From sequence record NC_054934.1: a DNA stretch of 64,000 bases, one strand, 5' to 3'. This stretch comes from Escherichia phage teqskov. The notes below the pieces were generated by a model. The model was not told where the DNA came from and ran no database searches. It saw only the letters and a program-made list of their open reading frames with translations. Position 1 is the stretch's first letter. Every line of letters begins with the position of its first letter. This document shows positions 50,717 to 52,575 of the stretch, in pieces. A program made the position numbers and the translations under genes.

Positions 50717-50792
50717 GCTGATTTAGCTCAGTAGGTAGAGCAGTTGACTGTTAATCAATTGGTCCATGGTTCGAATCCATGCATGTCCGCCA
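50717..50792 (+). tRNA. aberrant tRNA-like gene (Asn-type anticodon GTT) with non-pairing acceptor stem; probable chimeric or pseudo-tRNA
   Basis: D-arm, anticodon arm (GTTGA-CTGTTAA-TCAAT) and T-arm (CATGG-TTCGAAT-CCATG) fold, but 5' acceptor GCTGATT cannot pair with 3' CATGTCC (3 of 7 pairs); ends in GCCA. Confidence 0.5.
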
Positions 50793-50918
50793 AACTTGTG
50801 ACAGTTGTCACATTAATATCTACTTGACGCGATTATAGGGGTTGAACTGATCACACTTCTCTTAATTTCGTGTGAAGACATCTTGATTGTTGGAGTAGGT
50901 ATTGCTGTGAACTAATTA

Positions 50919-50995
50919 CGGGGTGTAACTCAATTGTATAGAGTAGCGGTCCTCTAAACCGCAGGTTAAAGGTTAGAATCCTTTCACCCTGACCA
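50919..50995 (+). tRNA. tRNA-Arg (anticodon TCT), encoded CCA
   Basis: acceptor CGGGGTG/CACCCTG (one G-T pair); anticodon stem GCGGT/ACCGC, loop CCTCTAA; T-loop TTAGAAT. Confidence 0.85.
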
Positions 50996-51016
50996 AATTA
51001 TTGAGAGAATAATATT

Positions 51017-51571
51017 ATGAGAAGTGATGTAGACTGGGACCAAATTAATTTGGCTATAAAAGCTGGATTAATATACCATGGTAATTTTGAAATAACACAA
51101 GAACTAATTGAAAATGTTGCTTTTCTTAAAATAACAGATAAGAAAAAATTCTTTTCTATGACTGAAGCCAAACGCTTGTCAAAATGGAAAGTATTTTGTA
51201 GGACTGCCGCCCTAAATCTTTTGAAATTTAAAGATGAATTTGATATAGAAAAAAGCTATCGACAGGCTTTCGTATACATAATGGTAGATACTACAAATCC
51301 TAATTATTATAAAATAGGAAGAAGTATAGAACCTGATGTTAGAGTTATAACAGCAAATACATTTTCACCGTTTAAAAGTTTTAAAATAGTATCATTTAGA
51401 TATTCCCAGGATGCAGTAGAACTTGAAAAATATATGCACAGCATTTATAATCAGGACCATATAAATGGTGAATGGTTTTTCTTTCATGACATAAGTTCCA
51501 TAGTTAAAAAATTAGATACTAAATCTACACAATTTGAAATACCAAATGAGAAACCGGGTCGCTACCGGTAA
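51017..51571 (+). CDS. T5orf172 / GIY-YIG-like domain protein (184 aa)
   Basis: C-terminal half has VYIMVD...YYKIGRS...R......ELEKYMHSIY...GEWF, matching the T5orf172 (GIY-YIG superfamily) pattern; lies directly after tRNA-Arg. Confidence 0.55.
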   Translation: MRSDVDWDQINLAIKAGLIYHGNFEITQELIENVAFLKITDKKKFFSMTEAKRLSKWKVFCRTAALNLLKFKDEFDIEKSYRQAFVYIMVDTTNPNYYKIGRSIEPDVRVITANTFSPFKSFKIVSFRYSQDAVELEKYMHSIYNQDHINGEWFFFHDISSIVKKLDTKSTQFEIPNEKPGRYR

Positions 51572-51589
51572 GTCGTCGGACTGATGTTC

Positions 51590-51859
51590 CCTGAGTAAGG
51601 AATTGCGTTAATAATCTTTGCGTTTATTGATGCCCTCTTACATCACAGCAGAAACGGCGCACCGAATTATCGATTCGAGGAAATATCTTTGCCGTAAGCC
51701 GAGTAGCGTTTTTGACGGAACGTTCGGATATGGTCGAGATATGGCCTTTTAAAAATATTGAGTAGCGTCAACTACTTAATAACCGGGTTCAAGTCCCGGC
51801 GTTTCGTACAAACACTTGCCTTAGCAGGTGGAACCCCGACAAGGTTGCCGCAAGGCTTA
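51590..51859 (+). ncRNA. structured non-coding region, possible small stable RNA(s) as at the distal end of the T4 tRNA cluster
   Basis: no ORF; tRNA-like T-arm hairpin CCGGG-TTCAAGT-CCCGG and several inverted repeats; ends at a rho-independent terminator. Confidence 0.25.
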
Positions 51860-51886
51860 GCCCCGACCGAAAGGTTGGGGCTTTTT
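51860..51886 (+). terminator. rho-independent terminator (CCCCGACC-GAAA-GGTTGGGG then CTTTTT)
   Basis: 8-bp GC-rich stem, GAAA loop, T-run. Confidence 0.7.
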
Positions 51887-51932
51887 AGTATAAATAAGTA
51901 TATTAAAACCACGAATTAAAACAGGAAATAAG

Positions 51933-52406
51933 ATGAAATCATATGCTCAATTTTTAAATGAAGCGGTGTTAAATGAAGCATCTAGCACTGAAATTCAAGC
52001 TGTTGCAAAAGCTGCCATTGCCGCGGGTAAATATTCCTATAAAGATGCTTCCGATGAATCACGATTCCAATTTGCTCGTGATATGAAAGCCGAAGGATTT
52101 ACAGGGAATGCAGTTAGTATGGCTTGGAAAAGTTTAGTTGCTACTGGAGCTGCTTTTGCAAAGGCTTCAGGTAAACCTGCTCCTAAGGCTGATCCTAAAG
52201 CAGCACAAGAAAAAAATATTGCTAAAGGAATTATCTCTAGGTATGAAGCAATTCTTAAAGAACTTTTGATAATCAAAACTGAAGGCCAAAAGCTAGCTCG
52301 TGCTTATAGTTTCAAAGATAACCCACATGTTCACTCTCTTGAATATGTTGAAGACATCCAAAAAATTATTAAAGACCGCATTTGGTCTGCTAAACAAATC
52401 AAATAA
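51933..52406 (+). CDS. CTS-bearing putative internal (head-packaged) protein, 157 aa, Lys/Ala-rich
   Basis: N-terminus MKSYAQFLNEAVLNEA resembles the CTS with L-x-E cleavage motifs; followed by a terminator. Confidence 0.5.
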   Translation: MKSYAQFLNEAVLNEASSTEIQAVAKAAIAAGKYSYKDASDESRFQFARDMKAEGFTGNAVSMAWKSLVATGAAFAKASGKPAPKADPKAAQEKNIAKGIISRYEAILKELLIIKTEGQKLARAYSFKDNPHVHSLEYVEDIQKIIKDRIWSAKQIK

Positions 52407-52414
52407 CATTCTTA

Positions 52415-52442
52415 GCCCCAGCCGAAAGGTTGGGGCTTTTTG
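52415..52442 (+). terminator. rho-independent terminator (CCCCAGCC-GAAA-GGTTGGGG then CTTTTT), near-duplicate of the one at 51860
   Basis: stem-loop plus T-run. Confidence 0.7.
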
Positions 52443-52575
52443 GTATCTAGGCCTTTCCGGGCCTCTCTGGGCATCATTTAGTTTATACCCTTTATAATAT
52501 ATTATCCTACCTTTTAATTGTCCCTCCTGACCCTAGAATTCCCTAAAACTTTTTAAAAAATTTTTTCACAAAACT

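Follow-up and report, generated by a model that had tools for sequence, protein, structure and literature searches.

The tRNA region of Escherichia phage teqskov, a T-even phage, raises the question of what kind of gene has settled between two of its RNA genes. The stretch of DNA that was analysed (64,000 nt of sequence record NC_054934.1, referred to here as the window) contains an open reading frame (ORF) located between the genes for tRNA-Arg(UCU) and the stable RNA rnaD, and a first reading of the letters alone (the sequence-only reading) had considered this ORF to be either a homing-endonuclease-like mobile gene or a gene for a DNA-binding regulator. The comparisons presented here point, with moderate confidence, to a putative free-standing homing endonuclease gene (HEG) of the T5orf172 type, within the GIY-YIG superfamily. 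The ORF looks like a selfish mobile gene that fills, as an alternative to the segB of T4, the same hot spot, and it adds a new example to a known kind of element rather than founding a new kind of system. The first of the two suggestions was thus strengthened by a precise insertion, a sporadic presence and near-identity in four genera with diverged flanks, which together represent the pattern that would be expected of a homing gene co-converting its flanks.

The ORF is inserted at the tRNA-Arg/rnaD junction

The corresponding genes of T4 are arranged in the order tRNA-Ile, segB, tRNA-Arg, rnaD and rnaC. T4 lacks the ORF, and tRNA-Arg abuts rnaD there with 1 nt between them. Homology between the window and T4 was shown to end at position 50778 and to resume at 51539 with the last 6 nt of T4 tRNA-Arg, followed by rnaD. 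The T4 junction (...GGGATACCA A ATGAGAAACCGGG, i.e. the end of tRNA-Arg, one A and the start of rnaD) contains a single ACCAAAT, whereas the window reads ...CTGACCA AAT-(leader, ORF)-GAAATACCA A ATGAGAAACCGGG. Relative to T4, 549 bp are inserted exactly at the tRNA-Arg/rnaD junction, with ACCAAAT at both ends. Empty sites carrying a T2-type tRNA-Arg, as observed in BF15 and EP01, read GACCA/AACAAGAA(A/G)CCGGG, with AAC directly after GACCA, and the filled site in VR7 reads ...GAAATACCA AAC AAGAAACCGGG. Empty (T4, BF15 and EP01) and filled (window and VR7) versions of one site, as are typical of a free-standing HEG, were therefore both found.

The placement of the ORF directly after tRNA-Arg, as initially described, was confirmed, with a gap of 21 nt to the ATG, and the structured RNA region that had been noticed downstream was found to consist of rnaD and rnaC (mapped from T4), followed by a terminator hairpin. 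The accompanying statement that T4 carries a seg-type endonuclease at this very place required correction, as segB is located upstream of tRNA-Arg, in the neighbouring slot; the ORF, being located between tRNA-Arg and rnaD, therefore does not occupy the segB slot. No genome with both segB and the T5orf172-type ORF was seen. The ORF is without a stop codon of its own, its last eight codons and the TAA being located inside rnaD, which corresponds to an overlap of 26 nt. The occupants of the slot were shown to differ by phage: members of PHROG 5032 (to which the ORF protein belongs), orfX (T2L 'trna.2', PHROG 3355), VR20_146 (PHROG 33509) or none, as in T4.

Sporadic distribution and a linked tRNA-Arg allele

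When presence and absence were compared across T-even genomes, the ORF was found to be absent from T4 and from most T-even phages. Of about 800 T-even records, carriers amount to about 17, from E. coli/Shigella T-even phages, 14 of them with an ORF at >=91% amino acid (aa) identity and three at 78%. The window region is 99.9% identical to that of Tequatrovirus BCH953P2 and 98.7% identical to that of phage LF82-9, and at least 80% of the region is covered by 7 of the 803 matching T-even records. A search for related loci in IMG/VR returned three loci, all from already known phages.

The carriers represent the genera Tequatrovirus, Mosigvirus, Gaprivervirus and Dhakavirus, and the ORF is 91-100% identical across these four. 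Between the window and VR7, tRNA-Arg and the ORF exhibited 98.7% and 94.5% identity, respectively, compared with 78-81% for the flanking genes. VR7 and its congener VR20 are 94-100% identical in their flanks and 76% identical in the tRNA-Met/Arg segment, where VR20 encodes an unrelated 79-aa ORF in place of that of VR7. Similarly, the flanks of Aplg8 and T4 are 94-98% identical to those of the window, yet both phages are without the ORF. These observations are indicative of horizontal spread with co-conversion of flanks, although the same pattern could arise from ordinary recombination at a hot spot.

Window-type tRNA-Arg (at least 98.8% identity) was identified in exactly 14 phage records, the very ones in which the ORF is present at >=91% aa identity; this co-occurrence (14/14) is as co-conversion predicts. 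The identity of this tRNA-Arg is 64% to the T4 gene, 83% to that of SG1 and 60-68% to the RN29 and My1 genes. Its acquisition as cargo from a T5-like phage was considered and rejected, since it represents a T2-type T-even tRNA-Arg that is closer to the SG1 gene than to those of RN29 and My1.

The ORF-linked tRNA-Arg(UCU) was also observed to carry C at position 33 (anticodon loop CCTCTAA), where U is near-universal. ORF-linked alleles of the window/VR7 type and of the AV110 type have C33, while KpV477-type carriers have U33; the five T2-type alleles without the ORF that were read (SG1, BF15, EP01, VR20 and TH41), a small sample, do not have C33. The change could be a hitch-hiker or a self-protection change. 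In an exact-pattern search of IMG/VR, eight of nine C33 matches were unrelated sequences, and the U33 matches were mostly distant tRNA-Arg genes among the 80 listed of 119; none of the 75 listed U33 matches with enough downstream sequence was followed by the ORF, which says little about T-even phages. Furthermore, T2-type tRNA-Arg genes (window 50919-50995; SG1, locus L013, 1807-1883; locus L023, 1501-1577) have the T-loop TTAGAAT, with A56 for C, and the D-loop AATTGTATA, with T19 for G, and these two substitutions look like a covarying 19-56 tertiary pair. The T-arm of T2-type tRNA-Arg (GGTTAGAATCC) departs from GGTTCRANTCC, the element reported to be essential for SegB recognition.

Table 1. 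Features of the ORF and its surroundings in the window
Feature	Position	Strand	Remarks
tRNA-Arg(UCU)	50919..50995	+	ARAGORN, Rfam; anticodon loop CCTCTAA, T-loop TTAGAAT; T2-type lineage
Left ACCAAAT direct repeat	50992..50998	+	tRNA 3' end ACCA plus AAT, at insertion junction
Leader	50996..51016	+	21 nt; Shine-Dalgarno-like GAGAG at 51003-51007, 9 nt before ATG
ORF, T5p067-like protein (PHROG 5032)	51017..51571	+	ATG start, 184 aa, TAA included
N-terminal all-helical domain	51017..51241	+	aa 1-75; helices 7-15, 28-37, 42-47, 50-73
C-terminal T5orf172/MUG113 (GIY-YIG superfamily) nuclease-type domain	51266..51526	+	aa 84-170
Right ACCAAAT direct repeat	51541..51547	+
rnaD (species 2 stable RNA)	51546..51663	+	Mapped from T4 annotation
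rnaC (species 1 stable RNA)	51670..51808	+	Mapped from T4 annotation
Intrinsic-terminator hairpin closing the tRNA/stable-RNA transcription unit	51859..51882	+

The ORF encodes a two-domain protein of the T5orf172 type

Membership of a Pfam family was taken as a score above the curated gathering threshold of its hidden Markov model. The ORF protein exceeded this threshold for MUG113 (PF13455; E=2.6e-9, 38.0 bits against a cut-off of 22.3, aa 98-155) and for T5orf172 (PF10544; E=3.4e-6, 27.9 bits against a cut-off of 20, aa 85-155), while the generic Pfam GIY-YIG model remained sub-threshold (13.1 versus a cut-off of 22.6 bits). Precomputed MUG113 and T5orf172 domains were both present in all 12 close homologues (12/12). 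The AlphaFold model is confident, with a predicted local distance difference test (pLDDT) value of 90.3 and a predicted template modelling (pTM) score of 0.85. It starts with four helices (aa 7-73) and continues as a beta-beta-alpha-beta-alpha-beta-alpha domain (aa 84-169) with the alpha/beta fold of GIY-YIG proteins. The protein is thus almost certainly a member of Pfam T5orf172/MUG113 and of the GIY-YIG superfamily. The sequence-only reading, which had made the same assignment from the motifs FVYIMVD, NYYKIGRS, R109, ELEKYMHSIY and GEWFFF, was accurate in this respect, as well as in its coordinates for the ORF.

A full-length match (aa 1-176, E=3e-59) was obtained to PHROG 5032, a family of unknown function. 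NCBIfam yielded no match to the ORF protein, and a profile of its family retrieved nothing at E<=10 from all chains of the PDB. PADLOC returned weak matches only, through the nuclease domain, and there is therefore no case for a defence system.

Invariance was read from a full-length alignment of ten T4-like family members (alignment A2). In the C-terminal domain, Y87 (at the 'GIY' position), Y98, G101 and R102 ('YIG'), R109, E137, H141 and E152 ('GEWF') were invariant, and Y87, Y98/G101, R109 and E152 are also retained in T5-like members. Judged by motif order and predicted secondary structure, the latter residues would match catalytic positions of related enzymes (R27 and E75 of I-TevI, E180 of Odn).

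The N-terminal half had been described as unrelated, and it indeed exhibited no Pfam match; however, it is conserved across the family, including T5p067 of phage T5, and hence does not represent a random appendage. Its invariant residues are W57 and CRTAALN-LK-K at positions 61-72 (C61-R-T-A-A-L-N-x-L-K-x-K). Based on the model, this helical domain is presumed to be the target-binding domain.

The ORF has a GC content of 29.9%, compared with 36% for the window. Pairwise ratios of non-synonymous to synonymous substitution rates (dN/dS) of 0.07-0.22 indicate that the protein is under purifying selection, and none of the copies examined was decayed. The last eight residues (NEKPGRYR) are unconserved, with a pLDDT below 50 for segment 180-182. 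This disordered tail, together with the stop codon borrowed from rnaD, would suit a non-functional remnant or a chance ORF, an explanation that is scarcely credible in view of conservation along the entire protein even at 29% identity (T5p067, hhalign probability 98.4%), a dN/dS far below 1 and a confidently predicted fold.

The second suggestion of the sequence-only reading was a regulator, i.e. a domesticated DNA-binding protein that no longer cuts DNA, comparable to the satellite protein CapR, which reuses the DNA-binding domain of a homing endonuclease. Its small size, conservation and purifying selection would suit a regulator, I-TevI doubles as a repressor, and T5orf172 was first predicted as a DNA-binding domain (cited in PMC8096241). 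CapR, however, consists of the Zn-finger DNA-binding part alone, without a T5orf172 domain. Furthermore, T4-like and T5-like members alike have unchanged residues at the GIY, YIG, Arg and Glu motif positions, which pure binding would not require, and a sporadic distribution ill suits a regulator of conserved phage functions. Taken with purifying selection, the invariance of every motif residue in the nuclease domain makes a regulator less likely, and we consider it improbable.

A T5p067-like family at tRNA gene boundaries

A tblastn search of 50,697 phage records identified family members in 339 records, almost all of them from T4-like or T5-like phages. T5p067 (172 aa) was aligned to the family by hhalign with a probability of 98.4% (E 5.8e-15, aa 11-173) at 29% identity. 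The ORF protein is 27-40% identical to T5-like members, tblastn matches at 39-40% spanning aa 6-184, and the VR7 copy (VR7ORF148c) is annotated as similar to 'BF23 ORF172c'. The alignment over aa 11-173 and the VR7 annotation indicate that the ORF protein is a full-length relative of T5p067, the homology including the N-terminal domain. The name of Pfam T5orf172 probably derives from T5p067.

The relatives of the ORF protein, in PHROG 5032 and its kin, include T5p067, BF23 ORF trn 2.12.1, Aeromonas phage 44RR2.8t ORF121c and VR7ORF148c. T5p067 resembles the ORF protein in both of its domains, in its size and in the location of its gene between RNA genes of a tRNA cluster, where it begins 21 nt downstream of tRNA-Cys and extends 24 nt into tRNA-Asn. 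In contrast to the T5-like members, the ORF described here is located in a T-even phage, beside tRNA-Arg and rnaD.

To characterize this habit, 17 genomic contexts were examined by hand, of which 12 are T4-like (window, LF82-9, 236Ecol005PP, VR7, ESCO10, ESh27, AV110, KpV477, X20, Muldoon, a metagenomic contig and 44RR2.8t) and five T5-like (RN29, My1, slur09, BF23 and T5). In 11 of the 17, the distance from a tRNA to the start of the ORF is 15-22 nt, and the preceding tRNA is tRNA-Arg(UCU) in 9 of the 12 T4-like contexts, these tRNAs being 56-64% identical between lineages. At the 3' end of the ORF, 13/17 contexts exhibit an overlap of 10-39 nt with the RNA gene that comes next; the other four (ESh27, AV110, Muldoon and the metagenomic contig) have a protein-coding gene there, a few to ~11 nt beyond the ORF. 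The overlapped gene is rnaD in the window, VR7 and the other window-type carriers (26 nt), tRNA-Thr in KpV477 and X20 (10 nt), tRNA-Arg in RN29 (39 nt) and My1 (33 nt), tRNA-Lys in BF23 (10 nt), slur09 (about 34 nt, the ORF end being approximate) and 44RR2.8t (27 nt), or tRNA-Asn in T5. In several contexts, the stop codon is the TAG of a tRNA D-arm.

Such a habit invites the explanation that the protein acts on RNA or tRNA biology, for example on a tRNA precursor or a damaged tRNA. The recurrent position directly after tRNA-Arg(UCU), despite the divergence of these tRNAs, is compatible with this idea, as is the finding that the closest T5-like relatives directly precede tRNA-Arg(UCU). More distant members, however, adjoin tRNA-Lys, Asn, Cys, Tyr or Met, and SegB demonstrates that residence in a tRNA cluster follows from the recognition of tRNA gene DNA. 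We know of no GIY-YIG-superfamily enzyme that acts on RNA, which also speaks against this explanation, and it appears highly unlikely.

Proposed expression and homing

The ORF would be without a promoter of its own and, by inference from T4, would be transcribed within the tRNA/stable-RNA precursor, from upstream promoters to the terminator after rnaC. Promoter matches directly upstream of the ORF were no commoner than in shuffled sequences. In T4, transcription of the cluster reportedly stops downstream of the species I RNA gene (PMC2330249). A search for a hairpin that would mask the ribosome-binding site, of the kind known from segB and I-TevI, revealed only a weak AU stem, which was no better than in shuffled sequence (z scores of -0.66 and -1.05). 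The stop codon of segB is cut off during tRNA-Arg maturation, which was proposed as a control of expression (PMC2330249). Since the stop codon of the ORF lies inside rnaD, 5' maturation of rnaD would likewise remove it from the message, keeping the full-length protein scarce.

As suggested by the predicted fold and the motifs, the N-terminal helical domain may bind DNA in or beside the tRNA-Arg/rnaD genes of phages without the ORF, and the C-terminal GIY-YIG-type domain may cut nearby. In a mixed infection, the break would then be repaired from the carrier, which would copy the ORF together with its tRNA-Arg allele and adjacent RNA genes, in line with the comparative patterns. Precedents exist in SegB and the F-Tfl endonucleases of T5, homing enzymes that are encoded within tRNA clusters and have tRNA genes as their targets. 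SegB, for which the T-psi-C motif of these genes is the recognition element, was present in 99.6% of the progeny of T4 x T2L crosses and drives the inheritance of itself and of flanking tRNA genes (PMC2330249). The literature treats T5orf172 genes as HEGs, and T5-like phages contain many of them (PMC10448857); one T5orf172 protein, Odn, has a DNA-cutting activity in vitro that is lost upon the substitution E180A (PMC8263062).

A more far-reaching proposal is that the T5p067-like family constitutes a homing-enzyme lineage specialised on tRNA gene boundaries, which protects itself, moves tRNA alleles and is limited in dosage by RNA maturation. Within this proposal, the closest members may be specialised on tRNA-Arg(UCU), and tRNA alleles may be cargo within and between T4-like and T5-like phages. 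The genome of the carrier itself may be protected by its altered tRNA allele (C33, seen in carriers only), and dosage may be set by translation versus maturation of the overlapped RNA gene. We regard this proposal as speculative and rather unlikely in its entirety.

Several observations count against homing. Homing has been shown experimentally for no T5orf172 gene (PMC10448857). No DNA-binding fold is recognisable in the N-terminal domain, and Zn-finger modules (CapR, DUF723 and DUF4397) were not matched in the ORF protein by Pfam; the family possesses one conserved Cys (C61) and no CxxC motif. The leader upstream of the ORF is found in similar form in all T4-like carriers, and was considered as the left end of a mobile cassette. 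This candidate was weakened because similar leaders after tRNA-Arg also precede the unrelated ORFs of VR20 and SG1, and the leader is thus not specific to the T5orf172-type ORF. Strong purifying selection and the absence of decayed copies fit a phage-beneficial gene as well as a purely selfish one. Finally, the slot is a hot spot of ORF exchange, so that ordinary recombination could generate the same patchy distribution and is a live alternative for the way in which the gene moves.

A different explanation is a nuclease that is kept for the benefit of the phage, cutting competing phages, satellites or host DNA, and that is moved by homologous or microhomology recombination in a hyperplastic slot. 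Unrelated ORFs occupy this slot in different phages, leaders after tRNA-Arg are alike whichever ORF comes next, and the neighbouring cassette (51892-52411), located between 36-nt terminator repeats, indicates repeat-mediated shuffling at the locus. The dN/dS values, the intact state of the copies examined and the weak PADLOC matches through the nuclease domain are also compatible with such a role, for which Odn of ICP1, which cuts the satellite of this phage, provides a precedent. Set against this, co-conversion by a homing enzyme predicts both the perfect linkage with the tRNA-Arg allele and the high identity seen in four genera, and a tRNA-boundary habit in two unrelated phage families is hard to explain with targets outside the phage. 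A phage-benefit role is therefore judged unlikely, although it deserves more weight than a regulator or an RNA-acting protein.

Comparison with SegB and other homing endonucleases

As a putative homing endonuclease gene, the ORF invites comparison with segB, which occupies the same tRNA locus, is likewise free-standing and inside the tRNA transcription unit, and has its stop codon separated by tRNA processing (PMC2330249), as would apply to the ORF. The lifestyle of the ORF is probably the same as that of SegB and of the T5orf172 HEG candidates of ICP1 and T5-like phages. The two proteins differ in that no similarity was detectable when family alignment A2 was compared with T4 SegB (hhalign probability 0.08%), which places the ORF protein outside the Seg family (SegA-G). 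The catalytic domain of SegB is taken to be N-terminal, as in the rest of the Seg family and in I-TevI. The domain order of the ORF protein would then be the opposite, as its nuclease domain is C-terminal. F-TflI, F-TflII and F-TflIV of T5 are also encoded by free-standing endonuclease ORFs in a phage tRNA cluster, and their expression is thought to be limited by tRNA processing (PMC2330249); they belong, in contrast, to the HNH superfamily.

With the T5orf172 putative HEGs of ICP1 and other phages (ICP1-type) and Odn (Gp88), the ORF shares an architecture of an N-terminal domain, presumed here to be target-binding, and a C-terminal T5orf172 nuclease-type domain, as well as a presence that varies between close relatives (PMC10448857, PMC8263062). 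The Arg and Glu that are catalytic in those proteins have probable counterparts in conserved residues of the ORF protein. As in Odn, helix 1 of the nuclease domain contains no His/Tyr. Zn-finger modules (CapR, DUF723 and DUF4397) are found in 87% of the ICP1-type HEGs, and Odn has RepA_N (PMC10448857), whereas the ORF family has a 75-residue helical N-terminal domain without a Zn finger; a Zn finger is not strictly defining, because 13% of T5orf172 HEGs lack such modules. ICP1-type T5orf172 genes cluster near essential protein-coding genes, while the ORF is located among RNA genes. T4 itself is without a T5orf172 gene (PMC10448857), and some T4 relatives carry one.

T5orf172 genes are widely assumed to be HEGs, and a member in the classical T-even tRNA locus could be subjected to SegB-type crosses and cleavage assays, for which empty-site partners are available in T4, T2-type phages and VR20. 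Two unrelated GIY-YIG-type genes, segB and the ORF, occupy alternative alleles on either side of tRNA-Arg, and these alternatives help to explain the variable tRNA content of T-even phages. Such variability is of practical weight because phage tRNAs counter tRNA-cleaving defences (PMC13096335). As regards annotation, 'hypothetical protein' (and, in ESCO10, 'head vertex protein') can be replaced by 'T5orf172-type putative homing endonuclease'. In ESCO10 (OM386655.1; locus L021, 1501-2055), the neighbours of the ORF homologue are labelled as prohead or RNA ligase proteins, and the labels look like an annotation register error.

Neighbouring rearrangements and ORFs

The sequence-only reading had suggested a link between the ORF and a rearrangement in the adjacent tRNA genes, which was not supported. 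Compared with LF82-9 and BCH953P2, a 249-bp deletion has removed tRNA-Met and tRNA-Tyr and destroyed tRNA-Thr and tRNA-Asn; this deletion is the product of recombination between the D-arms of tRNA-Thr and tRNA-Asn. It is not a consequence of carrying the ORF, because the carriers LF82-9 and 236Ecol005PP are annotated with a full tRNA array, and because the matches of five further full-coverage carriers, which span ~2,550 bp compared with 2,301 bp in the window, agree in direction. SegB promotes rearrangements in the T-even tRNA region (PMC13096335), and by analogy a nuclease-provoked origin of the deletion is possible, although nothing here points to it.

The remaining hybrid tRNA (50717-50791) consists of the 5' part of tRNA-Thr fused in the D-arm, at a shared GGTAGAGCA, to tRNA-Asn (anticodon GTT). 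Its acceptor strands are non-complementary, it is missed by ARAGORN, and Rfam matches model positions 8-63 only; this hybrid is apparently dead. The hybrid tRNA is separated from tRNA-Arg by a 127-nt spacer, which contains a perfect inverted repeat (GTGACA-GT-TGTCAC, 50797-50810) and is ~84-85% conserved in Aplg8, where tRNA-His comes next.

In many T-even phages, an ORF of 114-116 aa (MKGNVYLVVHDL..., PHROG 3355) is located directly 5' of rnaD, as exemplified by Aplg8 (locus L002, 2635-2985, unannotated), SG1 (L013, 1902-2252) and ESh27 (locus L009, 2542-2886). Judged from primer #24, this is the T2L 'trna.2 ORF' of the SegB paper. Both ORFs are present in ESh27 and AV110, with the T5orf172-type ORF placed after the tRNA and before the PHROG 3355 ORF.

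Downstream of rnaC, a 36-nt direct repeat containing the terminator hairpin (51856-51891 and 52411-52446, 92% identical) brackets a further ORF (51933-52406; 157 aa; PHROG 2280, function unknown). T4 has a single copy of the hairpin and no PHROG 2280 ORF, and the bracketed ORF apparently represents a second cassette that was gained or lost through the 36-nt repeat.

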